64,000 bases of DNA, taken from assembly GCA_010093815.1 (NCBI GenBank), contig ML996567.1, one strand, 5' to 3'. The DNA comes from Pseudovirgaria hyperparasitica (taxonomy: Eukaryota). The notes under the pieces are model-generated. The model was not told the origin of the DNA and searched no databases. It saw only the letters and a program-made list of their open reading frames with translations. Position 1 is the first letter of the stretch; each line of letters opens with the position of its first letter. Made by a program: the position numbers and the translations under genes. Of this stretch, positions 7,633 to 29,847 are shown one piece after another.

Positions 7633-9018
7633 TCAACGCATTGGTCGTTTTTCTTCTGTTCTCACGGGCATTCCAGTGTTTCTGCGCTTCCGAGCTCTTA
7701 TGGCTGGGGAACCCTCTCGATTTTGTGAATGGTTACTAGAAGGGGTTGAAATTTCAGTATCAGGGATGGTAGTCCCTTCGGTCAACTGAGAAATTTCGCG
7801 TTGTGTATCCTCCGGAGCTCTGCACAAGTCAGAATCACGGTACCTCTTCCGTCCTCGAGATGGCGTGCGAGACAATCCATTTGGTGACGGGCTGTGAAAA
7901 TTGTCGTCGTCATCAACATCTCCCTCGGTCCGTGATCTTTTCGTTGGGCTTTTACTGGAACGCTTATTGGACGAACTTCGGGGCTTTCTAGGAGGCAGAG
8001 ACACGTCCGCCTCCTCAAGCTTCATAGTTTGTAGATTCCACTTCCATGCAGTTCTTCCGAGACCATCGTGTTTGAAGAACGTTGCAAGACTGAATACTTT
8101 GATGGCGTATGCGGCGAAAAGATATTGAACACTAATTCCAGAAATCCGGTGCAATGATGTATTCTGATATAATGTCGTTAACTCGCCGGCAGTATCGGGT
8201 CGTATAACATGTAAAACGAGTGACAGGGCTGATGTCGATTGAGAAGGAGATTGATAGATGGGCACTTCCCCGTCGTTGATTGGTGCATGTATGTGTTTGG
8301 GCAAGATGGTCATTTTATCCGAGTCAAGAAGAGTATGGATGTCTGCACGAAGTACGACGACGTTGGCAGGAGAGTTGATGCACAGTTCATTAGCATCAGC
8401 TTCTGCTAGCTTGTATACTTCCATGTTGTTTCTGTCAAACCACTCCAGCAGTCTGCTGTGTATCAAGTGAGATTTCTGTGTTCCCATTTGGTGGCCCGTT
8501 ACTCTACAGCTGATATCTCGATTGAAAACGGAACGCAAGTCGTCATACCGGCCATGCGCGCGATCCGGCTGAGGGGGTATGTAGAGGGACTTCCAATAAT
8601 GTGGCAAACGATCATGAGGAAAGGGCCAGTCGTCAAAAGTTAGAACTATCGGATACATTTCTATATTTCTCAGTGATGGACTTGCCCTGCGAAGTAATTA
8701 CATGCCTTTGTGTGTTACATGGAAGTAATATCGCTCCAAGGTCAGCAGATGCTCTGGGTCATGAGGAACGCGGGTACCATTTGGCTCATTTTCCGTGAAG
8801 AAAGTATCGATGAACTCGTTGCCGGCTAGTATACCGCAAGCCAGACGCGCAGTCTCTAAATGGATGCCAAACGCGCCGTTGTTGCTTTTATCAACTGCGG
8901 GTAGCACGATGAGCGTGTTTCTGGGATAGCAGTAGCCAGGGTGACAGAAATAAACTTTCTTTGGTGATGGAGATTCCCTAAATGAAGCACTGCTCTGTGC
9001 GACACGATATTGAATCAT
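7633..9018 (-). CDS. HNH endonuclease-domain protein (fungal HNH_2 type); exons 8706-9018 and 7633-8660
   Basis: RDISCRVTG..KSHLI..WFDRNNM..INSPANVVVLRADIHTLLD motif; basic, NLS-like C-terminal tail; in-frame join via a GC-AG intron. Confidence 0.75.
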
Positions 9019-9536: not shown

Positions 9537-10500
9537 CTAGATACTACCAAGTGCTTTGCCCCCGGATATCTCATCAATCTTCATTGCGTCTTTTAGTCCA
9601 CATAGCTCAGACAATCCCCGTGGGCCTTTTTCGCCATAGTTCACTTTGCCATCCGATTTCAGCGCTTTCAGGGCCTCTGTTGACGCCTTCTGTGATGCTT
9701 CAAGTAGCATGAGTGGTACAATCGTCATCCTGAAGCCGAGGTCCTGTGCCTGTCTCATCGACCAGTTCGGCGTCAGTCCGCCCGGCACGAGGTTCAGCAG
9801 CATAGGCGTCTCGCCCATGATCTCACAGACCGCTGTCGCCTGCGCTTCATTCCTGATGCCTTCAAGAAACGCCACATCTGCACCCGCACCGATTGCAGCA
9901 CGCAGCCGCTCGATCGCTTCATCAAAGCCTGGCCCGGCAAGCGCGTCGGTGCGGGCAATGATGATGATATCGCTCTGCGCTCTCGTGCGCGCTTCGACGG
10001 CGGCCTTGATCCGGCTCACGAATTCTTCCTTCGTGACGAGCTCCTTGCCTAGCAGATGGCCGCAGCGCTTCGTCTGGACTTGGTCCTCGAGATGGAATGC
10101 AGCAACGCCGGCTTGGATGTACTGGCTGACGGTCCGCGCGACGGCGATAGGGCCGCCGTAGCCGGTATCTGCGTCGGCGATGAGGGGGATCGAGGGATCG
10201 AGGTTGGCGATGAGAGAGGCATTCGCAATCATGTCAGATGCGGTTGCAAGGCCCAAGTCGGGCCAGCCGATGCGCGAGAGGGAAGTGCCACTGGGGCCAG
10301 GAGGGTTAGTTCTCATCGTTCGACAGGATGAGGTCTGTCACGTACAAACCAGTCATGTACAAAGCGTCGAAACCGACGTTGAGAGCTAGACGAGCTGTGA
10401 AACCATCGTATACCCCTGGTGCTACGACCATCCTGCTCTTATCGTTTAATAGTTCCCGGAGGCGCGTGGAGGCACGCACTGTTGGAGCTTGCGATGCCAT
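9537..10500 (-). CDS. Isocitrate lyase/PEP mutase family C-C lyase (oxaloacetate hydrolase / dimethylmalate lyase-like); intron 10291-10345
   Basis: APGVYDG, YMTGFGTS, IADADTGYGG, HLEDQ..KRCGH catalytic loop, IIARTDA. Confidence 0.88.
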
Positions 10501-11854: not shown

Positions 11855-12165
11855 TTCGACCACATACAGAAGATTCTAGCGAGCATCATAGTCCCAAAAT
11901 CTCCACACCATGTCTCCACCATGGTCCCGCCAGAGAGGACAGACTAATGGCACCGAGTCGTAAACCACATAGACAATCAAACAAGATCCGCAAATGCAAT
12001 CCCCATCTACCTATCCCTCCACCTTTCGACCACATACAGAATGTTCTAGCGAGCATGATAATCCCAAAACTCTCCACTCCCCGTCTCCACTCCCCACCAT
12101 AGTCTCGCCCCAGACAAACAAGAACACCGAATCATGAACCGTGTAGACAATCAACCAAAATCCCA
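11855..12165. repeat. Diverged ~170 bp tandem duplication
   Basis: TTCGACCACATACAGAA..TTCTAGCGAGCAT at 11855 and 12025; shared CACCGA..TAGACAATCAA block further into both copies. Confidence 0.75.
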
Positions 12166-12958: not shown

Positions 12959-15855
12959 TTAGTAATTAAAGACCATCAAACTCGGATTCAGCATCAGCGG
13001 CATCAGCGCGTGACTCGCCAACGTAATGCTCATGGGCACAATCGCGGCAATGCTATTGATTTCCCAGCCGCGGGGCGCGAAGCAGCCCAGGTAGATCATA
13101 CCGCCGACAAGCGGCACCAAGATGGCATACAGCCACTTGAAGCTGTTAAAGATTTTGGGCATCTCCTTGAAGAAATTCGAGTTTTCCTTCTCCTTAGCGG
13201 TAGCGCCCCACTGCATATCGATCTTAAACATATGTGCGAGGATGGCGAGGTTGAGATGGAAGGGCAGGCCGCCGAAGAAGACGGCGAACATGGGCATCCA
13301 CTTGAAGTTCTCGAGCAGGGCGGGGAAGAGGGCCTTTTCGCCGAGGCGGTAGCGCAGGACGGCGAGGGCGACGTTGCCGAGGAGCGAGAAGACGATGACG
13401 AGCGAGAGGAAGACTTTCCAGGACTCCATGTAGAACTTGTCGAGGTGGCCGTTGAACCAGCCGATAAGGAAGTAGTTGAGGATGGTGAGCGGGAAGCCGG
13501 AGGCGAGGGCGTAGTAGGATGAGATGTAGCCGAGTATGGTGATCTTGGAGCTCAGCTGCATGTCGGACCATAGGAATGTGCGGAAGAGCGGGGTGAAGGG
13601 AGACTTCCAGAGCCATTGGTGGACAGGGTTGAAGACGAGCTCGTTGCAACCGTATGCGTACTTTTCCCATCGTGCAAGTTCGTCGTAGATTGTGAGTGAG
13701 ACACCCTCCTTGAATTGGTTGTCGTGGTAGGTGGCTAGGCGGACGATATTGCCGGCGATCTGGAGACGAAGAGCGATGTCAAAATCCTCTGATACGTGCG
13801 ATTCGGACCAGAAAGCGATATACCCATTTTCTTCGTGGCGACCAACAGACTGTACAGCTTGCCAGCGAAGGAAAGCGTTGTGGCCGACGAAAGGGGCGCT
13901 GCATCAGTCAGTACTGGAATTGCATTAGAGGGAAAAAGGCACTTACGTTTCGCCAGATCCAACAGCAAAACTAACAGCAGAGTAGATAAGATTGGTGAAG
14001 AAGGTGATACCATTCTCAAAGTAGTCCCAGGAGACTTGCATGACACCAGTGGAATGTTGGATGATGGCGACTTCTGGGCTAAGATACATCTCCGCAGCAC
14101 CATATAGGAGACAGTCGGCAGGCTTCCGAGACGTTAGTGATTGAGACTGAGACTTGACAGAAATGACTTACCACTTGGGTATCAGAGTCGACGATGAGGA
14201 TGAACTCTCCAACACGAATGTTCCCATCAGCCTTTGCTCTCGGGTTTTCATCGAGAACCTGTTTGAGGGCAGCCTTGTAAAGTCGCTCTTCCTCGCGGTC
14301 GTCAAGATAGCCATCCTTCTCCAGCTCATTGACCATCTGATCAAGTTTGTCCTCGACCTTGTTGGAAATGTTCAGGGCAAAGTTCATGTTGGAAGCCTTC
14401 TTGAATTTGCCCTTGCGTATAAAACCGTCATCGTTGTGCTTTGGGCGGGAGACCCAACCGATGTTGTTGTCGTGATAGAACTCAACACGCTCTCTGGCCT
14501 CGTCCTCGGAAAGATGTGCGAGACCATCGTCGTTGATGAAGATGGATGCGGTGCCCCCGTGAGACTCGTAGTGAGAAATGGCCTGCTTCAAACTAGTAAC
14601 AGTTGGGATGATGACACCTTGAAGAGACTCCTTGTATACTGGCATCTGGATGGTCATTGGTGGCGGCCTGAAGCCGCTGGCATATGCACGTGAGAGGTCT
14701 GGCTTGATAGCAGAGAAGAACCTGGTGTTTTTCTTCAACCCACCGATCGGCCCAATGAGCTGGAAAAGATCTGTGAACAGACAGATGGCGAAGAACATAC
14801 TGAACAGCATGAAGATGGGTACAGTAGCCAGTAGAGCCATGCGTATGAAGTTTCCATCGGTCAGTGACTGGAGCACAAGATTCGCGCTCCCGAAGCCAAG
14901 CATCAACACGACTAGGAGGCATACTGAGAAACCGACCATAACACTCGAAACGAAGACGAGGGGACGTCCCAGCGACTCAGGATTTTGGGCCTCTTCATCG
15001 ATGGAGGATACTTCTTCGGTCGCCTCAACGGGCTCTTTCTTCTCATCAAGGGGCAAGTTGTGTGTTGAGTTTGCTTCCGAGTTCACAACGGAATGTTGAT
15101 TAGTCATGTTCAGAGGCGTGCCAAGAGCCGAAAACGGGGATGCGGTCGAGCCCCAGATCTGCCACACACGTCAGTTCTGACTTCACCTCATCTGTGTCCA
15201 TCTTGGAACGATAGAAAGACCTACCATTGCAAGCAATTTTCCTTCAATGTTTGCAGCATGGTTCAGGATCTTATCTAGCTCGTCATGCCATACTAGCAGC
15301 AGCTTCTCCTCGCGCACCAGCGCAGCATATTGGAACTTTCGGATGCTTCCAGACGAAGACGAGGCGATCTCTGCCAACGAGTTCACGATCTGGAGTTGCG
15401 ATCCGTTAGGTAAGGCCAGATCGGTCTGATGTGGTTGAATAGTAGAGAAGATAACATCTGTTGTCTGGGTGCTCATGGTGAACGCGACGGCTACGTTAAT
15501 CTTCTGGACTGCTGCAAGAAGCCAGGCATTGACAGGCTCCGGATCGCAGACGTATTCACCGCGTGCCCTGCGTAGGAGAACACCATAGGCGCTGTGTTCC
15601 CGCTCGCTCACGCTCGGTAACCATTGATTGCCTGTTATTCTGCCGGACAGATATTTGATCATCTGTGCACGTGTAAGGACACGAGTAGCGACTGATAAGG
15701 GGAAAGACACTTACAGCCTTGTACTTCATGGCATCGTCGATGAATGTCATAGTGTTCCGCGAAACGGCGACAGGTCTATGATTTGATGATCGCTGAGACG
15801 TGTGCGATGCTCTGGAGGACATGCTGTCCGGGGTAATAGGAGAAATGGTGTCCAT
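12959..15855 (-). CDS. Multi-membrane-spanning GT2 glycosyltransferase (Glyco_trans_2_3 type, putative polysaccharide synthase); exons 15715-15855, 15225-15662, 14172-15158, 13947-14122, 12959-13898
   Basis: Four GT-AG introns join in frame; QMPVYKE, NDDG, KKASNMN, VDSDT, FVGHNAFLRW, VSEDFD motifs; 2 N-terminal and several C-terminal TM helices. Confidence 0.88.
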
Positions 15856-18800
15856 TTTGGAGATTAAGGTGGGTGGAGGAAGAAGAGAAAGTAGGACGAA
15901 TCGCTGATCTCGAGAACCTTGAACGCACAAGAGCGTTAAAAAGGGCTCTTCGAATTCAGAACTCTAGACCTCTTGAAAGCTCAATTGATAATACGACTCG
16001 AGCAACGGCAATTTTTGATACTCAGTCAAGATGAAAGAATACTCTCGAGCTTTAGGAAGGACCCTGGAAGAGATATACCTATGGTAGACGATCGACGGAG
16101 CTTACCCTCAGCTGAGATGTAGAGAGGTAGGATGACGGCAGGTTCCCTCGGTGGTTGAGGCTTGGAGATGGTGGAAGCTCAAAAGAAAATCTGGACGAAA
16201 AAAGATCCAGACCTTCGAGCCGACGCGATGAGAGTTGCCGCGAGCGGATATGGGTCCCAGGAGTATGGTTGATGGCTCCACATGTGTCAGATCAAAAGGA
16301 AAGCTGTGATAGGGAAAAATAGATCCTTGAAGACGACACTTTCCTAGCGAAAGCTGAATCGGTGATCGCATACTGCGGCGGCGCCGGCAGAGACGCCAGT
16401 CAGCGCAATCGATGGCGTTTGTAGCCCTGAAGCACATGGTGGAGCATGCTGAACAGATTCGGTCAAACCACCCATGCACCGCGTGCATATACCAGAGGCG
16501 CCAGCATCGATAGCTTAGACAACAAGGGGGGATGGAAAAGAAGCTACAGAAGGACCCTCGGGCATGATGGCTGGTGTGAGATTTGAGATAGATATGCAGT
16601 AGCGCGGCTTCGTCCAAAATGGGTCAATGAAATATTACGGTGCCAATTGAGTAAGTAGACCAAAGCTGGTTTCCAAGTGAGGACTAGTCTTTGAAGTTCA
16701 GGCATCAAACTCCACGCGCAACGAAGTCCCTTGTATATGACACGGTAGGGGAGGGCTGGTGATTAGTTAGTGGAGGGCATGTGCCGCTTGTGGGGGTTGG
16801 GTAGAGTATTGTTTGGAAGCAGTGATTTATAGCGTGCATGATGAGCCGACACACCCCAAACGATTGCCAAGATGCTATGCAAAACACAGAGCGGGACAGG
16901 AATTGAAAGTCGAAGGACCACAGCGTAACATACGAGATATGTAACAGCGCCGCATATAACAGAGGGACCTAGCAATAACATCAGAACATTTGCTGTCCCT
17001 GTGCGTTGTGATGGATGAATATATTCCAATCCCTCCATAAAAGTCATAACGAGAAGCATTAATGTTTCTGTCTTGACCAATAGGATACAAATTCCCTTGT
17101 CGGCACCTGGTAGCTTTAGCAGCAGCAGACAGGTACGCAAGGGAGGGGCATGTGCCAAATAATGGTCAATTGGTTTGGTATTATTGTATTACGAAAGCAC
17201 CACAGCAATTGGAAACGAACGCTGAGGGGGCAGAAGTGTATAATAAGAAGAAGGCCACCATGTTGGCCACTGCAAAGGTGTAAAGAGGGAGACGTCGGGG
17301 ACGATGCCATTTTGGTACGGGTACATCCGAACACGCACTCGGCAATGGACGATACTCGTGCCTGAGCCTTGTAAATTTTTACATTTGCCATTTGCAACTT
17401 TTGGGTCTCTCGCCAAGAACCCCCCATGCCCATGCGTAGGCGTAGACGTAGGCTGTGCTGTGACAGTTCACACGAGCTAGCACGGAGCAAAGAAAGATGG
17501 CGGGAGACCGTCACAGACGGCGGGAGATGGCGGATTGAGATGGGAGCCAACGAGAACTAAGCTCTGTAGCTCCTTGTCTGGTGAAGCAGAGAAGGTTCAG
17601 AATATTTAATATGGACTGAGATGGACCGCCGAGTGCTTAGCACGAGAAGCAGGGTTGTTGTCGACGAACAGAGGGATGGCATGCACTCGCGTTCTGTGTA
17701 TGATGGCAATTAATGGATTACCAGTAGAAGACATTTTCACGAATCCACTTTAATTGAGAGCAAGAATATGTGGAGAATGGTTCAAAGTAACGAAGCATCA
17801 ACATTTCTGAAGAGTTTTCTAGGACACCGGAAGAGAATGTCAGTCTGTATGTGTGAGTGGTTGGTGGTGGTGGCGGTGTATCCATTAATTATTATCTATC
17901 ATGTACCATGTATCTTGTATTATGTATTATATATCATGCATTTGAGTATTATATATCACGAAGAAGTAGAGGATGGAAAGTTGCGCCTTCTTCGGCGGCG
18001 GAAGATCGGCAGGGCAGTCCAGTACGTACGTACCTACCTAGTTGGGTATGTAAGTAGATACTTTACTTCCACAGACTCGAGCTTAGTCAGTCTAATACAA
18101 CAGGCCTGCCAGTGCCAGTGGAATGTTACCTTACCTTCTAATACTTTACCTCTACACACTGAACAGACGCAGCTCAGAGCAGACGCCTGTTCATCTCGTT
18201 TCCATTTCCATTCACGACATTCAAGCCATGACAGTCGATTCGTATCGCATCGCACCTCATACCGCTTTCTCGCAAGGTCTCCGCCTCCGCACTAGCCGTG
18301 TCCCAGTTGCGTACAAGCACGCACAGCAGTACTATGTAGTGCGTACGCAACGACACAAACGTGGTCAATCTCGATGAACCGATAAAGAGTGGACCGTCCA
18401 TATCAAGCGAACGCCTCTAGCAATTGCCATGGCCGCGAGGCATAGGCAAGCGAGTGCGTCCCAATAAGCAACACGGCTGACACGGGTGGCATTTCTCGCT
18501 CAGCCAGCTATAGAGAGGTAGAGAGGGACAAGCTCAACGCCATTTCGGCATCAAGGCGGCGCTACGAGCCATGGTTGTGTGATTTTGGCTGCTGGCTGCT
18601 GGCTTGTGCAAGGGCCAGCAGCTTATATGCGCCGAAATCTAGAAGCCATTTGAGTCCGTTGGCGCCCGTTCAAGCCACTACAGACATCAACAACACCAAA
18701 CACCATCTCTCCACGCAACACCCCAGCGCACTAGAGATAACAGCCTCGTCTTGCAAGCCACGGCCCTCGGCACCCCTACACTCCCCTTGTCCCATGTCAG

Positions 18801-20028
18801 ACCGCACGGACCATCTAGCATCGACACGATAACCGTCAGCATCAGTAGTCTCACAAAATGTTGTACAATACTCCAAGAGTCCAAATGCAAGTCTTGATGT
18901 CTAATCTCATCACCTCACACGCTGACGCAGACCTGATTTCTGCAGAACGTCGTGCTTTTCTATGTAGGCGGGCCTTGTGTGATACATGTAAAACGCCAAA
19001 CGCCGTTGAAGATCTGCGCTGGATCGACGTGGAGAACAGCAACATGCCGATCCGGTTCAACTGGGAGACGCTGCTAAACAAGCAGAAGTTTGTGGTACGC
19101 CTCAATCTCTTCCGCGGTAGGCCCCGTCCATCTATCGATACGCTTGGCTTGGTGTACCCGATCGAATCCACCCCGATCGTGATTGGGCCCTCTTTGGTAG
19201 ACCCTCACCCTTGTCTACAAGTATTTGTTACATTGTATATACCTGTGGAGCCTGCGGGCCTTCGGGCGCTCGGGCATAGCCACTTATGATTATTCTACGA
19301 ACTCGGCACTTTGCAACTTGGCTCACTTGTTCTTACTGTACCATGCGGAGAGTATGTTACTCCTCGCAACATGTGCATGACGGAGTTGCTCCTCCCGACA
19401 AGTCTGATTTTGCTTTCACAGGGGAATTTTCTATGTCTCAACATCTCATATTATACAGTATACCGTTTCGAGCTAGTTCGTGTTTATGCAGGTCAGCAAG
19501 AAGACAGCCAGGATGACCCCTTTGGGCGAGTGGGTCCCCAGATAAGGTTACGGCAGTGGTGTATTGCACTTGCGAGCTATGCAACTAACACTGAGTCAAT
19601 AGTCCCTCGGTTTGTATCTATCCATGTCGCCTAGCTTTGCATGATGATCCCTCCCGCATCCATGCAGATAGTCGCACAATTCATGACCTGCTCGTGGCTC
19701 CTAGACCACCTGTCAAATAATTACGTGGGTTGCTAAAAAGGAACGCCTCTAGAACGCCGCCGACGCATGGAATTCTCCATACGCCGCGGCAGTCAAAAGA
19801 AAGAAAAAAAAGTCTACAGGCCTGTCAAGACAGCTTCTGGAACCACTCTTCAGCTGGGCTGTATCACATCAAGCCCCATATCAGACATGGGGATAGCCGC
19901 GAATATTGTTTCCATCTGAAGTTGTATTATTATTATTATTATTCATATCGCGCTCTCTCGCGAGAGAACATTGACTGATCCGCACCACCCAAACACCCAG
20001 ACACTCAGCCAACACTCCCCTCTCCACC

Positions 20029-21711
20029 ATGTCCCAGACACCCCCTACTGTCCGTGGGCCTTTCTCGGACAGCGCCGCAGTCTCTTCAGCTTCATCCATA
20101 AGACCGTCTCTGCTTTCAGAGACACACTCATTCTCCGATGGAGGTGCCTATACGGGCAAGCACAGATTCACTAGCTACAAGCTAAAGGGAGAGTATGTAT
20201 CTCGACATCGGACCTGTCTACGACATGACATGATGCTGATAGCTGGCAGATATGAGAGACCATGGGTAAGCGACAAGAGGATGAAGAAGTGGAAATATAG
20301 CAACTATATCATCTGGGTGTTCATTGGGATTGGATTCGTGCTCGCGGCGTATATCAATTACACTGCTGCAATGAAAGTCGAGAACAAGCCCGTAAGTGAA
20401 GCTGCTGTGCAGGCAAAGGGTTAGGTTGCTGACCTGACATTTTGTAGATGTGTCTGATCATGGAGGACAATTTTGAGCGATTTAATGAAGACAATTGGTT
20501 CCACGAGGTCCAAGTCAATGGGTTCGGGTCGGGAACTTTCGACTGGACGACGACGGACGAGAAGAATACGTTTGTTGACAGTGAGGGTCTTCACATTGTT
20601 CCGACCCTCACGACCGACACAGCTGGAATTACGAGAGACCAGATCTTTGACGGATACACGCTCAACCTGACGCAAGCAGGAGGCGACGGCAGCTGCACTG
20701 GAAGTAGCAATAGTGAATGCTCGATCCACTCTAACGGTACGCTTGGACAGATCATTCCTCCTGTGCGGTCTGCAAGGCTTTCGACGCGGGGCAAGAAGAG
20801 CATCAGATATGGACGCATTGAGGTAACAGCCAAGTTTCCTCAGGGAGACTGGCTGTGGCCAGCAATTTGTACGTGTGACTTGATTCTATGGCAGGCTGTA
20901 GCTAACAGAAGAAGGGATGATGCCAGAGGATAGTGTGTACGGAGTTTGGCCCAGAAGTGGAGAACTAGACATTGCCGAAGGACGAGGCAACGGAGTTGAC
21001 TATGCTCTCGGGGGCCGCGACATCTACACGAGTTCAATGCACTGGGGTAAGTGTAGATTCTGGCGCAATAGGGTATGAGGATTTAGAGGCTGACGCAGTA
21101 TACAATGCAGGACCGACGACAAGCACAGACGCATTCTGGCGAGCAACCCGAGGACGTCAGCTTCGACGGACAGACTTCAGCAAAGGGTTCCACACATTCG
21201 GCATAGAGTGGTCATCGGACTACCTCTTCACGTATGTGGACAGCAGACTGCAGCAGGTCATGTATTGGCGATTCAAGAACGAGCAGACGATGTGGGAGCG
21301 CGGTGACTTTGGGCCGGCGACGGAGAATTCGAGCATTGTATCGAACCCATGGGCTGGTGCAGCGGGCAACGCGGCACCGTTCGACCAGAACTTCTACCTT
21401 ATCTTGAACGTGGCAGTGGGTGGACGCAACGGCTGGTTCCGGTAAGTGGGCGTCCGACACGCAAGCATCACGCGATATACTGACAGTCGGACTAGGGACG
21501 GTGAAGGTGGTAAGCCGTGGACGGATGCTGGAAACAGTGCATACGACTTTTACAAGAGTGAGTTTGTACAGAAACCAGTGTGCTAGTGAGTACAGAAACG
21601 CTGACTTTCCTGTGCGCAGACATTGACCAATGGCTGCCGACTTGGGGCGAGGGCAACGCTCGCGGCATGACGGTCAAGTCAGTGAAGATGTGGCAAGAGG
21701 GAGCATGCTAA
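20029..21711 (+). CDS. Type II membrane GH16 (beta-1,3-glucanase / glucan-binding protein-like); 7 exons
   Basis: Spliced frame gives one TM helix, then PPVRSARL, YGRIEV, GDWLWPAIWMMP, the catalytic WPRSGELDIAE (ExDxxE), FHTFGIEW and APFDQNFYLILNVAVGG; ends WQEGAC*. Confidence 0.9.
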
Positions 21712-23446
21712 AAAAGGCTGATGATCGAGTTCTGCATTTTTTTTCAGCTCGTGTTGTACAGTGCTCGCTGTACATTGTTGCAGCAGGTTGCATGGGTTTG
21801 CTACATCAGGGTCTGTCTGATGATAGCTAGATGGACAAACGCGGCGTACATTCAGGGCGTACATGGGACGAGATTATTGCTGGGGTGTAACGATGTATGA
21901 GATATAGACCGATTATAGCATGGTGTTCTTTTAGTGACTGACTGATTGACTGCATGTAATTTGCATATTGATATGGGTATATACATATATATCCATATAC
22001 GTATATGAGTGTACGTATGTACCTATCTATATATATGCACGTCGAATGTGGTGTTTCGAATTGATATATGCACTACCCCCACCGCTACTGCTGATGACAC
22101 CTGAGCGGATAGAATAGACAGATAGACAGGTAGATAAGACAGATATCGGTCAACATCTAGCCCAGAAGGCTGCATGGCAGTGCATGAAGTAGTAGTGGTG
22201 GTGGGCTCGATGGATGTTGATAAGGATGATGAGCGTTAGAGACGTGGTGTGACATTACAGTGCATGTTGGTTGGTGGTGCAAGCTGGAGTATACGAGTAA
22301 ACATGCATTCATTCATTCATCCCGGGAGCGTTTCGGTGTGACGTTGGGATAAGACGTGGTAAGGTATTGAGGCGGTGCTGTACTGTGGTCCAGGAATGTT
22401 AAATACTGGGGTGTGCTGTGGTATACCGTATCATACTATGGTATGCGGTACTTGTGCTATGATATACTGCATATCATCCCATACCGACATTGATAATGCG
22501 TAATTACTGTACCCACTCGTCAGTTGCATTTTCGTACCGTCATCGGTCCTTCTGGAGCCCTTCTATGCAGGCTGGCAGATAGACAAACAGGCAGGTAAAC
22601 TAATCACTCGTGTTCTTCCAATATGATGTGCATATATATCAGCGAGGGGCAGTGAAAGCACATATCAGCACGAGTCAGAGTCAGAGTGAGAGTCAGAGGA
22701 TGGATGGGCGGGAGGAGCCATGATAATACGAGGTGGCGTTCATCCGGGGGGGCTTTTGGTGTACGGCAGCCCAAATGTGGTATTGGGACCCCTCCCCCCC
22801 CCTGGCCAAGACCATGACCACGACTCATCCCTGCCGCCATGTTGCTCCCACGCACTACACATGCACCCGCTGCAACGTCTTCTATTGATTTTTGCCCTTC
22901 ACTGCATTTTCTCACCACCAATGTCCTATCCCAATACAATCTCAATCCTAACTCCAACTCGACGCCTCCATGGGGCTACCACCCGTCAGCCCAACTAGCC
23001 AAGTGCTTCATACTTTCCATGAGCCTCTACACACTCGTGTGTTGTGCCGCTAATAGCCCTATGCCTCATCTGGTCAATGTATTCACTTGCTCGGCCGACA
23101 CTTCATGGGGCATGAGAGAGCCTCCTCACCGACTATGGATGTTGTCCGTCTCGGCCTTTCAGCCCTCTTTTGCGCCTCGCTGACAGAATGGAGAACTCCA
23201 GATCTGTCTTTTCTGAATCGGTACTGCTGACGTCTACCGGACCTGACTGCCATCACTTGACCTGGACGCATCGTATTGTAGCACTGCCATGTTGTTCTTC
23301 GTGTGTGTGTTTTTCACTCCATTAAATATGTCGCTGTCCCTGCTTGTTTGGCCCCCTCTCCAGCCCGTCGTTGTCTCTCCCTGACCTTGACTTCGGTTGC
23401 TGTCTTGCCTCCATTCAGGCACAATAGGTCGATAGCTTAGCCAAGG

Positions 23447-26400
23447 ATGACGAGCCTATTCTCAATCTGCCTGTTCCTGTCTGCTTCTTGGGTGAGTGAG
23501 CTCGCTTCCGGTCCTGTCTATGCACGTCAACCTGACTGAGCCCCTGGCTGACATTTATCTCTTGGCGATATAGTTTGCTGCTCCCTCCAGTGCTAGATCC
23601 CTGCCGTGGGCAAGCAATGTACATCTTGCCGCACGCGACTTGACGCCTGCTTCGAAGCTCCCTGGTAACTGGACATATCAAGGATGCTATTCGTGTGTTT
23701 CTCTATCTATCCAGATTATGTGCTTTGTTGACGTGCTGATCCTCATCTTGCAGTGATAGCACGGGGTCCCGCACCCTGAGCAATGGCGGCTACAATAGCG
23801 GAAACCAAATGACCGGCGAGGTGTGTATCTCGTACTGTAGCCAGAACGGCTTCATCTATGCTGGAACAGAGTATGCCGGGGAGTGCTGTATGTTGATCTC
23901 GTCACACTTTTGTTGTATTAAAGGCGCCCCAATGCTGGATCATGGCTTTGTCGATCCATACTACAATCACTGACCATGTTGCTCCTCTGATTTAGACTGC
24001 GGAGCTCGTCTCTCGAGCACAGCGACCGAGAGTCCGGATTCGGACTGTAACATGGCCTGTAATGGTGATGCGGCGCAGGCATGTGGTGGTCCAGGCCGTC
24101 TTACAGTATATTGGAACGGACAGTCCCCTGCTGCGGATCCTATCGTCAATCCAGGTCCAGCTGGATGGAAGTCTTTGGGCTGTTATGAGTACGTGAAATT
24201 CAATCCTGCCATGATACACCCCCTATATCACACATCTCGATCAACCCCAGTCTCCAATTGCTTGGCACTATTGTACATACTAACAAAAGGGGCAGAGATG
24301 GCGGTTCCCGCACGCTCTCCCAGGGCGTTGCCGTACAGGGAGATTTGACCGTCGCCAAGTGTACGGCTGCGTGCAAGGCGGGCAAATACAAGTATGCTGG
24401 GGTCGAATACTCGTACGAATGCTGTGAGTCGGTCCAAACGACCTAGACCGTCCCGGAAGCCGTCTAATGTCTGCTAGATTGCGGTAACACAATCGACAAC
24501 GGCCATGGCCCCAAGTCTGATGGCTGTACGATGACATGCAAGGGGAACAGTACCGAGTTTTGTGGTGGTGCGAACCGCATCAACCTGTACGGACCGCCAG
24601 ACGCCGTTCAGTCGTCTGCACCAAATTCTCAACCTTCCCCGACTGTTGATCCGGGCACCGCCGTTGATCGGCCAAACACTGATGCTCCAGTACCTGCTCA
24701 GACCACACCGTCTGAGGTTGATGTAGCCACCACGCCTACTGGTGCTGTTGCCACGGCGGCACCGAGAGAGACTGGCTCGGCTAACCAGCTGCCGCAAGGC
24801 TGGACCTATGCAGGCTGCTATGTAGATGGCCAATATGGCCGTATTCTGGTGCATGGACCGCCCGATAGCGACTCTTTGACCATCAATGGGTGTGTGTCGA
24901 CATGCGTGCAGATGGGATACTCTGTTGCAGGGATGGAATACTCCAGGCAGTGCTTCTGTGACAACTACATCCGTAATGGCGCGCTCAACACTACGGACTC
25001 GGACTGTAGCATGGCTTGTTCCGGGGCTGCTGACCAGAAGTGCGGTGGACCGGACAGAGTGAGTGTGTATGGTCAAGCGCCGGTGAAGATCATTCAGCGG
25101 CCCGAACAGCAGACGGATAACTTGCCTGGTAACTTCAAGTATATTGGCTGTCGCACGTGGGTTACCCTGGGGCGTTTCCACGACGATACTTTGATATACT
25201 AATTCATGACAGGGACGACTCTGGTGGTACAAGGACATTACCGTACAAAGCTGTCTACGCAAACACCAACAATGCCACCACATGCCTGACCTCATGCATG
25301 ACGTTCGGCTACAACGCGGGCGGCATGGAGTACGGCGAGGAGTGCTACTGCGGCGACCCAGACATGGTCCCGGCGGGAACCACCTTTGTCGATGATTCCG
25401 AGTGCAACACTCCTTGTCCCGGGAATCCGGAAGCGTTCTGCGGCGCCGGAAATCGCATGTCCTACTACGAATATCAGGGCGATCAGCTCCAGGTCTGGAA
25501 CTACCCCTCTGGCAATGATGCTGGAAGGTACGAGTTTCTCATCTACGCGCCGACTGTTGCCCTCATCACCACTTTGGGGGTCAATGGGAAGGTTACTTTC
25601 CAGGAGAAGTTCGGTACTCAGTACAATGGCACTGGCTCATACGAGTTTGACCCCTTTTACGAGGACAATTACGATGCGGCCTGGCGCGAGATGATTGGTC
25701 TTCGGACGGACATTTTCTGCGCAGCCGGTCTCGTTCTTCCGGATAGAGCTGGTCGACAAGTCACCTTTGGCGGCTGGGCAGGCACGTCGACCATGGGCAT
25801 CCGCCTCTACTGGCCAGATGGTGCGCCTGGCGAGCAGAGTGTCAACGACTGGGAGGAAAACGCCGACGAGCTTCAACTACAGAACGGTCGCTGGTACCCC
25901 AGTGCCATGCAAATGGCCAACGGCTCCATCCTCATCGTCGGTGGCGAGACAGGCTCCAACGGACCTGCTGTCCCTACCATCGAAATCGTGCCTCGCGTCG
26001 GCCCTGTACTTACCATGGACTGGCTACAGCGAACCGACCCCCTGAACCTCTACCCCTTCCTCGTCGTCCTCCCAGGCGGCGGCATCTTCGTCGGCTACTA
26101 CAACGAAGCCCGCATCCTCGACGAAAACACCATGGCCACCATCAAAACCCTCCCCAACATCCCCGGCGCCGTCAACAACCCCCTCGGCGGCCGCACATAT
26201 CCGCTCGAAGGCACCCTCATGATCTTCCCCCAGCACGCTCCCTACACCGACCCCCTCGAAGTCCTCATCTGCGGCGGCTCAACCCCCGGCTACCCAGTCC
26301 CACTCGACAACTGCGTCTCCACCCAGCCCGAAGCCGCAAACCCGCAATGGACTATCGAGCGCATGCCCAGCAAGCGCGTCCTCTCCTGCATGACCGCCCT

Positions 26401-27097
26401 GCCGGACGGCACTTTCCTCATCCTCAACGGCGCACACTTCGGCGTCGCGGGCTTCGGCCTTGCCTCCGACCCGAACTTCAACGCCCTGCTCTACGACCCC
26501 CGGAAACCCGTCAATCAACGTATCAGTGTCATGGCAAATACCACCATCCCCCGCCTCTACCACAGCGAAGCCCTCCTCCTCCCCGACGGCCGCGTCCTCG
26601 TTTCAGGCTCCAACCCAGACGATGGACCCGACGCAGTCTCGACAAACGAATACCGCGTCGAGGTCTTCCTCCCACCGTACCTGCTCTCCGGCCTCCCCCG
26701 CCCCACCTTCACCCTCCCCTCCTCACTCTCCCCATCATCCTCCACAGCAGCAGTAAACACAACCGCTATCCCCTACGCCTCCACATTCACACTCACCCTC
26801 ACATCCGCACTCTCCTCCCCGCTCTCCAGCCTCCGCATCTCCCTCCTCGGCACTACTAGTAATACTCACGGCAATACGTTTGGCCAACGCACGTTTTTCC
26901 CCGAGTTTAGCTGTCGGGGAAACACGTGTACGGTTACGGCGCCGCCGGATGCGCATGTTTGTCCGCCCGGGTGGTTTATGGTGTTTGTGCTTGATGGGCA
27001 GGTGCCGAGTGTGGGGCAGTTTGTGAGGATTGGCGGGGATGTTGGGGGGCTGGGAGACTGGCCGCGAGTGGAGGGGTTTGTGGTGCCTGGGGTTTGA
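23447..27097 (+). CDS. Secreted copper radical oxidase AA5_1 (glyoxal oxidase-like) with four N-terminal WSC domains; 7 exons
   Basis: Signal peptide MTSLFSICLFLSASWFAAPSSA; four WSC repeats (GCY..AGxEY..EC.C..C.G..CGG); active-site motifs FCAAG, GRWYP, RLYHS, NTHG. Confidence 0.9.
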
Positions 27098-27451: not shown

Positions 27452-29847
27452 CTACAACAACTTCGACACCCCGCCCGGCGCCCACTCCTCATACCGCCTC
27501 CTCATATCCGCCGTAATCATCCTCGGCACATCCCCCAACGCCTTCTCAAAATGCCTCATCCCCACCCTCGGCATCTCCCCCTTCTCCCCACCCTCCCACT
27601 CCGCCGCCGCCTCCTCCGCCGCAACATCGCAGATCCGCACTACTTCCGCGCCGGAACATCCCTCTGTGCGCTCCGCCAGCACATCGACGTCGACGTCCTG
27701 CTCAAGCTCTCTGCGACGGTTGCGCAAGGTGAAGATCTCGCGGCGGGCGGGGGTGGTCGGGGGCCCGACGTATAGAATCGTGTCTATGCGGCCAGGGCGC
27801 AGGAGGGCGGGGTCGAGGGCCTCGGGGGCGTTAGTAGCTGCGATGACGAGGACGTTGCTGAGGGTTTCGATGCCGTCCATTTCGTTGAGGAGGGTGGTGA
27901 CGACGTTGAGGCCTGGAGTGTGTATGTTGTTGTTGCGGGAGGAGGCGGCGATGGCGTCGATTTCGTCGAAGAAGATGACGCTGGGGGAGGCGGCGCGGGC
28001 GCGGGTGAAGAGGGCGCGGATGGCGCGTTCGGATTCGCCGACGTACATGTTTAGGAGCTCGGCGCCTTTGACGGCGAGGAAGTTGAGGCCTGCTGAGGAG
28101 GCGACGGCTTGGGCGGTGAGGGTCTTGGAGCAGCCTGGGGGACCGTAGAGGAGGATGCCTTTTTGCGGGGTGAGGGAGAGGTGTTTGATTAGGGCTGGAT
28201 ACTGTGTTTCGGGGTGGGTTTGTTAGTTTTCGGTTTGGGGGTGGGGAGGAAAAAAGGGGGGAGGAGGATTTGTTTACGTACTTTGTAGGGACGCACGGTG
28301 ACTTTGTACATTGCTTCTTTGACGGCTTCGGCGCCGCCGATGTCTTCCCAGCGGACTTTGGGGGTTTCGAGGAATACTTCTTTCATGGCGCTGGGGCGCA
28401 CTTCGTGGAGTGCTGAGGTGAAGTCTTGTTCGGTTAAGATGTCGGTCGAGATGTGTGCTGGGGGTTGGTCGGTGTCTGGGATGGGCTCGGAAGGGGGTGC
28501 GGCGTCGACTCGCTCTTCGGCCTTCTCGAGTGCGACTATGCATAGTTCGACGAGGTCTCGGCCTACGTATCCGTGGGTGCGTTCGCCGATGCGCTCGCAG
28601 AGCGGGTCTTGTTTAGTGGTGTCGAGGATCGATTTGAGGATACTGCCACGCGCCCTGGCATCAGGAACTGGTATCTCGATGACTTTGCTGAACGTGTCGT
28701 AGGACCTCAGGGACTTGTCGACGGCCTGGAGACTGCGCGCAGCTGCCACTACAAGCGTCCGCTCTCCCTTCAAAGCACGTAACCGAGACGCCAGACTGTC
28801 AAGCAAATCTCTTCGAGCAGACTCTGCGTCTCCAAAGACGGTTTCCCAGTGATCTATGGTGACGAGACTTGGTTGGACCTGCTCAGCTTTTGCGAATATC
28901 TCTTTCAGCTTGGCATGTGCATCCTTTGCGGTCGTGCCTAGAGTTGCCGGGCTGATCTCGAAGACGTGCGGTCCGAAGGCTGCTGCGAGGCCTTGGATGG
29001 TCATGGTCTTGCCTGTTCCCTCAGGGCCATGAAGGAGGATACCGGCGCCGCGTCGGCATTTTGGTGGCCTCGTCCAGTTTGTCTTCGTCTTATTGTCATC
29101 TATCATGCGAGAAATGGACTTTGTCAAGATGTCCAATTGCTGCTCAAGACCACCAATGGTTGCAAAGTCAGGCTTGGGCGCAGCTTTCAATACTATTTGC
29201 GGACATTCCTCTACGAGCGAATTGACATCACCAGGCGTGTCTAGAACGATCTTCGTTCTGTGGTCGACTTTGTATAAAGTACTAGACGTGGCTGCTGGCT
29301 CAATAGCATGTATCTGCAACTGACGCTTCCTAGACTTGATCTTCGACACCACATCGATTGTGTATGGAGAGCACGCACTCGAAGCAGCAACTGACAGCGT
29401 CAGTCATGGAGAAGCCAAAAGATCTACGCATCTATACATACACAACAAAATATGGATACAGAACAACGCCTGTTCAAGGTCCGCAAAATCCTCTAGCAAA
29501 GACCCACGTTCGCTGATATCTGTAGACCTAAGGTACACCGTGTCTGCATGTATCCTACCATCAGCGCCCTTTTCTATGCTGACCTTTTCCTGGAAAGAGA
29601 GGCCGTAAAAGTTCTTGAAGGATTCTGTGACCTTCGCTATAGGCTTTGCATTATTTGCATTGGGGCTTTTATACAGCCAAGCAAATCCGTATACTGGCTT
29701 TCCACTGGCGTCTTTCAGTATGCATAGCTCGCCATTCTTCAAGCCGCACTGCGTCAGGCTTGAGCTAGTGAGATATATTCGAAAAGCTGCTTCCAGCGAG
29801 TTCGAGTCGCTGCCTCCTTCGTAGGGTCTGACTGTGAAGTCAGGCAT
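27452..29847 (-). CDS. AFG2: Type II AAA+ ATPase Afg2/Drg1 (SPATA5-like); 3 exons
   Basis: D1 GILLHGPEGTGKT; linker VRPSAMKEVFLETPKVRWEDIGG; D2 GILLYGPPGCSKTL, IFFDEID, ALLRPGRID. Confidence 0.82.

Follow-up and report, generated by a model that had tools for sequence, protein, structure and literature searches.

Do three neighbouring carbohydrate-active genes in a fungal genome act on one and the same cell-surface glycan, or do they merely sit side by side? The question is raised by a stretch of 64,000 nucleotides from Pseudovirgaria hyperparasitica (GenBank assembly GCA_010093815.1, contig ML996567.1), which we refer to as the window. It carries, one after the other, a polytopic glycosyltransferase with an N-terminal DUF7928 domain (DUF7928-GT2, or GT2 for short), a type II membrane GH16 hydrolase, and a secreted AA5_1 copper radical oxidase with four WSC domains (AA5). 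We lean towards the answer that the three form a conserved, developmentally switched cell-surface glucan module, in which GT2 and GH16 are the core and AA5 is an accessory. Published work is cited by its PubMed Central (PMC) number, and what we say of it is limited to the portions available to us.

The three genes

The three genes are intact as modelled in the window: all introns are GT-AG, and the spliced reading frames are open throughout. GT2 lies on the minus strand (15855-12959), with 893 amino acids (aa) encoded in 5 exons at 15855-15715, 15662-15225, 15158-14172, 14122-13947 and 13898-12959; a second ATG at 15750 would give 858 aa. On the plus strand, GH16 (20029-21711, 7 exons, 447 aa), which resembles beta-glucan-recognition proteins and laminarinases, is followed by AA5 (23447-27097, 7 exons, 1060 aa). 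Homologue searches return deposited P. hyperparasitica proteins that are 100% identical for all three; our GH16 and AA5 models do not differ from these by a single letter, and the GT2 model has 35 extra N-terminal residues. The limits first drawn for this cluster, 12959 and 27097, are the outer stop codons of GT2 and AA5.

The initial annotation described three consecutive carbohydrate-active genes, with GT2 divergent from a type II GH16 that has its ExDxxE motif, and a 4xWSC AA5_1 oxidase in tandem. Gene models, active-site motifs and Pfam content (DUF7928 and Glyco_trans_2_3 in GT2; Glyco_hydro_16 in GH16; four WSC, Glyoxal_oxid_N and GO-like_E_set in AA5) all agree with that description. 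It also saw no intact gene between the three, and we see none either: the 11 open reading frames (ORFs) scanned in the 4173-base-pair (bp) spacer between GT2 and GH16 and the 1735-bp spacer between GH16 and AA5 have no Pfam match, and neither spacer has an Rfam match or a tblastx match among 80 related loci. The accession series of the deposited proteins (KAF2761334, 1336, 1337) skips one number between GT2 and GH16, which implies that a small gene model was annotated there in the deposit. The 4173-bp spacer, which separates the two divergent starts (15856-20028), is probably the shared promoter region of GT2 and GH16; a search for promoter words common to 9 GT2-GH16 spacers gave no k-mer above shuffles.

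Within the genome, DUF7928 has a single match, an exon search for GH16 found this copy only, and the further AA5-type matches are at most 43% identical.

Conservation of the linkage

If the three genes work together, we expect to find them together elsewhere. In metagenomic DNA we analyzed the best 80 of 485 confirmed GH16 matches. GT2 is found in 25 of these 80 loci, and in all 16 of the informative ones, those with at least 5 kilobases (kb) on either side; one of these 16 GT2 matches is partial and at the edge of its locus, and several of the loci are near-duplicates. The pair comes in both divergent and tandem layouts, and the flanking genes vary by locus. By comparison, AA5 is found in one of the same 16. 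Thus GT2-GH16 is the stable core, and AA5 is a minority partner. Where AA5 is present, loci L050 and L041/L042 have the gene order of the window, and in L020 the order is shuffled, with AA5 between GT2 and GH16. No recurring fourth gene appears among 128 ORFs from 20 loci.

Two of the metagenomic loci, L029 (6100-11155) and L027, have a divergent GT2-GH16 pair of low GC content and apparently free of introns, and L029 has an additional GLEYA/ALS-type adhesin gene. Their source is possibly a yeast, which would carry the pair beyond filamentous fungi.

For named genomes, synteny was read from locus tags and accession order rather than from DNA, and the cases were chosen among the top 120 matches per search, as examples and not as a census. 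Five more named genomes, all from Onygenales, have the three genes next to one another: Malbranchea (VTO42DRAFT_8182/8181/8180), Myotisia (FQN57_006038/39/40), Ophidiomyces (LOZ39_006607/8/9), Coccidioides posadasii (EER25724/26/27) and C. immitis (EAS29095/91/89). The accessions of GT2 and AA5 differ by 2 steps in Uncinocarpus, Nannizzia and four Trichophyton species, and by 2-3 steps in five genomes of Pseudogymnoascus; the intervening gene was not seen in any of them. Leptodophora (ACEPPN_008151/2) and Cadophora (IFR05_009459/60) have GH16 beside AA5, and in Talaromyces atroroseus (UA08_07336/07338) the two are near each other, with GT2 not seen among the matches. Consecutive GT2-GH16 tags are found in T. 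marneffei, T. stipitatus, Aspergillus tanneri, Pyrenophora, one Pleosporales isolate and Stachybotrys (S7711_03732/33). In Cryomyces minteri, whose contigs are short, the GT2 and GH16 representatives are not adjacent. Microsynteny had been suggested from the start as the check on the cluster, and it came out in its favor, with the trio adjacent in several Onygenales and metagenomic loci, and subsets linked in Leotiomycetes and Talaromyces. The linkage is not a product of chance.

By their names, lengths and cluster membership, two of the matched proteins (P0441 and P0453, 1345-1373 aa) appear to be GH16 and AA5 annotated as one; they come from assemblies of Coccidioides (one) and Ophidiomyces (three). 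These are probably gene-calling merges of close tandem genes.

An old linkage, often broken?

Was the oxidase linked once or several times? We built trees on selected rows with LG+G4. That the AA5-linked copies form one clade is rejected for each of the three genes by the approximately unbiased (AU) test (p 3e-4 for AA5, 5e-125 for GH16, 4e-118 for GT2). In both the GH16 and the GT2 trees, L020 and L050 are in a clade apart from that of the window, and both clades are strongly supported. Since the L020/L050 clade of the GH16 tree also holds Massarina and Hyaloscypha proteins, this points to a split between paralogues. For AA5, a quick tree gives the same L020/L050 split, and the careful tree does not resolve those rows.

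The presence of AA5-linked copies in two paralogue clades suggests an old cluster that has often been lost. The simplest reading is an ancient three-gene linkage that was duplicated and frequently broken, with the oxidase probably linked early in Pezizomycotina and then separated in many lineages. Repeated recruitment of AA5 is a possible alternative. The AA5 and GH16 of the window group with Eurotiomycete copies, with support 91/92 and 84/89. We do not claim a horizontal transfer from Eurotiomycetes, because the position of GT2 is not resolved and paralogues are common.

Are the genes switched together?

Our expression evidence consists of rows of published supplement tables. For Neurospora crassa, NCU04167 shares a protein cluster with a close homologue of GT2, and we take the WSC oxidase to be NCU09267, which lies far from the GT2 and GH16 genes. 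NCU04168 is listed as a GH16 (PMC6796803). At 24 h after crossing, NCU04167 is up 5.9-fold and NCU04168 10.9-fold, and both drop at 48 h; NCU04169 follows the same pattern and NCU09267 does not (PMC4203796). In Coccidioides, from spores to 8 h, AA5 falls by 3.4 log2, GH16 by 2.7 and GT2 by 2.6, compared to changes of +1.8 and -0.4 in the flanks (PMC12077801). In Arthroderma benhamiae the oxidase is ARB_07867, which has a signal peptide and has been detected by mass spectrometry; it shares one common module with ARB_07868-07870, and these genes are down by 4.3-7.7 log2 in host skin (PMC5069957). Going by the numbering, ARB_07868 would be the GH16 and ARB_07869 the GT2. The neighbors ARB_07866 and 07873 also fall in host skin. 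In in vitro media, ARB_07868-07870 are mutually correlated (r 0.81-0.84). For P. destructans, none of 6 locus tags is present in the one expression supplement searched.

We observe an on/off switching that is common to the trio, tight for GT2 and GH16 and loose for the oxidase, and with which one data set disagrees. Co-expression, the other check proposed for the cluster, thus comes out in favor in A. benhamiae, in Coccidioides spores and in the N. crassa GT2-GH16 co-peak, but not in the Coccidioides spherule and hypha data (PMC9015156), to which we return below. A fourth adjacent gene also tracks the expression of the cluster: ARB_07870, NCU04169 and, in Coccidioides, D8B26_004178.

What the proteins look like

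The GT2 catalytic motifs NDDG, KKASN, DSD, SEDF and ExxRW lie at 13667-14534 on the minus strand. NDDG, KKASN, DxD and SEDF are each present in 41/41 aligned homologues, and the position of the QxxRW motif reads ExxRW in most of the 41. The protein has 6 hydrophobic segments. Its AlphaFold model has a mean predicted local distance difference test (pLDDT) of 74 and a predicted template modelling score (pTM) of 0.74, and its best fold match is the bacterial cellulose synthase BcsA (Foldseek E 9e-12; Z 21.5, root-mean-square deviation (rmsd) 4.9, 436 residues aligned), followed by hyaluronan synthases, plant cellulose synthases and Fks. These best matches are polymer-translocating synthases, and they cover both the catalytic and the membrane parts of the predicted model, in which membrane helices that could form a channel lie on either side of the GT-A domain. 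All solved synthases are at most 16% identical, so the fold does not tell which linkage GT2 makes. A GT2 profile against PDB sequences has no matches at E up to 0.1.

The fungal GT2 enzymes of the N. crassa CPS-1 type have about 510 aa, a signal peptide and two C-terminal transmembrane helices (PMC6796803). With 893 aa, an N-terminal DUF7928 and 6 hydrophobic segments, the GT2 of the window is not one of them. Atlas clusters of the DUF7928-GT2 family are mostly from Ascomycota and Basidiomycota, with diatom and bacterial clusters more distant. In prokaryotic genomes, one of 30 pattern matches has a GT2 relative, from a Lachnospiraceae, and a bacterial version of the cluster was not found. That relative (L093:5677-9522) belongs to the DUF7928-GT2 family at 27% identity and, by eye, is fused to a protein-kinase-like C-terminal domain; also by eye, no GH16-like ORF was recognised near it. 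The homologues P0007, P0365 and P0366 bear the name NCP1, which is also used of genes close to the mating-type locus of Cryptococcus; NCP1 and NCP2 there may or may not belong to this family, or be the GT2-GH16 pair.

The DUF7928 domain (15132-15726, minus strand) is N-terminal and predicted to be cytosolic, with a possible class II aldolase/adducin-like fold. It is without the His-x-His that is the zinc motif of class II aldolases. Residues 1-162, taken from the whole-protein model, align to the class II aldolase 2irp with Z 12.7, rmsd 3.5 and 151 residues aligned, and to three more, 2opi, 4m6r and 2fk5, with Z 11.7-12.2 (141-151 residues over all four). At the sequence level this match has no support: a DUF7928 profile compared to one aldolase detected no relationship. 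The polar residues Q-x-Q, Q-Y, R, W and D are invariant in 41/41 homologues. The domain may be a regulatory ligand site, and the aldolase-like match of the predicted model is possibly the first fold assignment for DUF7928.

The GH16 protein has a hydrophobic transmembrane helix at residues 72-98 (about 20299-20361, plus strand), which the structural model places at 64-96; an internal N-terminal membrane helix passes the hydropathy cut-off in 34/41 homologues. The catalytic ELDIAE is at residues 259-264 (20962-20979, plus strand), and E259, D261 and E264, the ExDxxE motif, are invariant in 41/41. Among solved structures, its nearest relatives are laminarinases and beta-1,3- and beta-1,3(4)-glucanases (for the beta-jelly-roll of laminarinase 3azx, Foldseek E 8e-18), which suggests an activity on beta-1,3(4)-glucan, as hydrolase or transglycosylase. 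Kre6 and Skn1 are type II membrane GH16 proteins tied to glucan synthesis. The GH16 of the window is like them in topology, but its Pfam matches, taken to an E of 10, are Glyco_hydro_16 and a weak DUF6341, with none to the SKN1/KRE6 family, and its closest solved relatives are laminarinases. A predicted complex of GT2 (238-857) with GH16 (69-447) has a median score of 0.33 for a mark of 0.34, which counts neither for nor against an interaction.

The AA5 active-site residues, on the plus strand, are C602 (25718), Y661 (25895), Y882/H883 (26558) and H985 (26867). W660 precedes the cofactor Y661, each WSC domain has 8 Cys, the N-terminus is hydrophobic, and a C-terminal hydrophobic stretch is absent. 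WSC domains bind glucan. The match to the aldehyde oxidase FgrAldOx (PDB 9N3U) has E 1.3e-194, compared to 5e-17 for Streptomyces GlxA. With FgrAldOx, CgrAldOx and VdaAA5_1, the WSC-AA5_1 aldehyde oxidases, the AA5 of the window shares the domain order, all first-shell residues and the Trp before the cofactor Tyr; unlike the AA5 beside GT2, the available descriptions of these enzymes mention no glycan-synthase partner. The cluster-linked AA5 model of T. atroroseus (P0250, 1536 aa) also has a peroxidase domain, PF00141, and is either a true fusion or a merged neighbor that could use hydrogen peroxide.

A proposed mechanism, and what weighs against it

How would a three-part glucan module work? 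Given its fold and motifs, DUF7928-GT2 may be a processive synthase in the membrane. Its nucleotide-sugar substrate would most likely be uridine diphosphate (UDP)-glucose, and the growing polymer would pass through its membrane helices. Beside it, the type II GH16, with its active site predicted to face the outside, would cut, release or transglycosylate the chain. The product probably contains beta-1,3-glucose links, either beta-1,3 or mixed 1,3/1,4, because the closest solved relatives of GH16 are glucanases of those linkages. The WSC-AA5_1 oxidase would bind wall glucan and act locally as an optional accessory, and by making hydrogen peroxide while it oxidises aldehydes, or chain ends and C6 groups, it may aid cross-linking or hardening.

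A number of observations count against such a module. AA5 or WSC is found in 7 of the 80 metagenomic loci, in 1 of the 16 with 5 kb on both sides, and in 3 of the 22 with 5 kb downstream. In Stachybotrys, AA5 lies elsewhere (02276), and in Pseudogymnoascus F-4519 the single GH16 seen (V501_03864) is away from GT2 and AA5. The common module of A. benhamiae is large (turquoise and blue, 2,122 genes), and in in vitro media the oxidase has r of -0.16 to -0.41 with ARB_07868-07870. Once the spore samples are left out, correlations among the Coccidioides trio are 0.04-0.34 (PMC12077801), and in spherules versus hyphae GH16 falls by 5.6 log2, with GT2 (-0.9) and AA5 (+0.2) classed as not differential (PMC9015156). 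Deletion of N. crassa GH16 genes, NCU04168 among them, gives wild-type morphology in the part of that work we draw on (PMC6796803), and deletion of a Verticillium WSC-AA5_1 is described as leaving growth and conidiation unaffected. Finally, FgrAldOx, the closest characterised relative of AA5, oxidises mainly small aldehydes and converts galactose poorly (PMC13094651), which lends no support to the original proposal that AA5 oxidises the polymer to aldehydes. Of the joint glycan module that was proposed with it, the GT2-GH16 unit stands as stable, but the oxidase is missing from most loci.

Alternative explanations

Some of these observations fit a different explanation, in which GT2 and GH16 do function as a pair but the oxidase only travels with them as a passenger. 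It would be an aldehyde oxidase of general use, bound to the wall and a source of hydrogen peroxide, kept by inheritance or common regulation and not acting on the GT2 product. We find it rather doubtful, if well worth keeping in mind. AA5 is missing in 15/16 informative loci and unlinked in Stachybotrys, fine-scale co-expression is weak, FgrAldOx prefers aldehydes (PMC13094651), and glyoxal oxidase has been tied to carbonyl detoxification (PMC11315307). However, a passenger has to be reconciled with a linkage kept across three fungal classes, with differing flanks, in two paralogue clades and through the shuffled order of L020. Nor is a taste for small substrates decisive, since Streptomyces GlxA has a profile similar to that of the WSC-AA5_1 oxidases (PMC13094651) and yet joins CslA in a cellulose-making complex (PMC11022532).

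Could the module we favor be, more specifically, a fungal machine of the CslA-GlxA kind? Here DUF7928-GT2 enzymes would be a hitherto unrecognised family of wall-glucan synthases that act with the membrane GH16 and, in three-gene species, with a copper radical oxidase by which the synthase is activated or its product oxidised. In spores and fruiting tissue this would yield a so far undescribed glucan, either oxidised or of mixed linkage (lichenin-type); the aldolase-fold DUF7928 would be a sugar-phosphate sensor, and the whole module would have been copied together before Dothideomycetes and Leotiomycetes diverged. We regard this as unlikely.

In Streptomyces cslA-glxA-cslZ, as in the window, a GT2 with a BcsA-like fold, a copper radical oxidase and a glucanase are clustered with one gene divergent (PMC11022532, PMC9040799), and GlxA shares with WSC-AA5_1 oxidases a second-shell Trp arrangement and an activity profile (PMC13094651). 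The differences are that the Streptomyces glucanase is a GH6 and not a GH16 (PMC9040799), and that the oxidase of the window has four WSC domains and is distant from GlxA. Moreover, the tight partner of the synthase is the oxidase in Streptomyces and the hydrolase in the cluster described here. The parallel drawn in the initial annotation thus extends to gene composition but not to ancestry: the fungal trio is an analogue, and not an orthologue, of cslA-glxA-cslZ.

A third explanation, which we consider improbable, is that the GT2 product is not a structural wall glucan but a glycan that is short, cyclic or lipid-linked, or a polymer other than glucan, which GH16 turns into a signal or matrix oligosaccharide. 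The change of QxxRW to ExxRW in most homologues, the identity of at most 16% to every solved synthase, and the normal look of the N. crassa GH16 mutants (PMC6796803) are compatible with it, and the Atlas look-alikes include clusters auto-named glycolipid synthases and MdoH. Against it, the top fold matches are polymer-translocating synthases over both catalytic and membrane parts, and GH16 resembles endo-glucanases that act on polymers. Finally, that the three are unrelated neighbors held by slow genome rearrangement is very improbable, and largely refuted for GT2-GH16: many of the named three-gene cases are indeed related Onygenales, but the pair persists in divergent and tandem layouts as flanks vary by locus, and the flanks of the window were not found by tblastx in the 80 loci, one weak match apart.

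Other clusters and neighboring features

The galactosaminogalactan cluster of Aspergillus, with a GT4 synthase, an epimerase, a deacetylase and GH114/GH135, likewise joins a fungal synthase, a hydrolase and a modifying enzyme for a surface glycan. The trio does not belong to it, as those families do not occur among the Pfam matches of the trio or of the neighboring scanned ORFs.

Downstream of GT2, at 11855-12163, there is an imperfect direct duplication with a spacing of about 170 bp. Further along, an ORF at 7636-8697 (minus strand) with a weak HNH endonuclease match (E 3.5e-5) adjoins a gene of the PEP-mutase/isocitrate-lyase family at 9540-10337. On the other side, a two-domain AAA ATPase gene (27455-29403, minus strand) is convergent with AA5; it was not found in the 80 related loci.

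Significance

We found no paper describing the GT2-GH16 pair or the trio in the open literature that we searched, with subscription journals and bioRxiv supplements outside that search. A review places NCU04167 among seven GT2 genes, grouped with those raised in perithecia, and, in the portion available, lists NCU04168 separately, without adjacency or product; as of 2019, it states that in filamentous fungi the enzymes that make mixed beta-1,3/1,4 glucan are undefined, with NCU04167 among the GT2 candidates (PMC6796803). The natural substrate of WSC-AA5_1 oxidases has also been left open (PMC13094651, PMC13390370).

The linkage described here joins three orphans: a widespread fungal GT2 family without a known product, a membrane GH16 without a known role, and the WSC-AA5_1 oxidases. 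The conserved GH16 partner makes the DUF7928-GT2 family worth testing and offers a direct way to do so, with deletion strains of GH16 genes available in N. crassa. The full cluster is present in dermatophytes and other Onygenales, and one of these fungi turns it off in host skin, so it may be the mark of a wall layer specific to the environment or to spores. And if the oxidase does act with the synthase, fungi and streptomycetes would have arrived by convergence at a common three-enzyme design for the walls of filaments.

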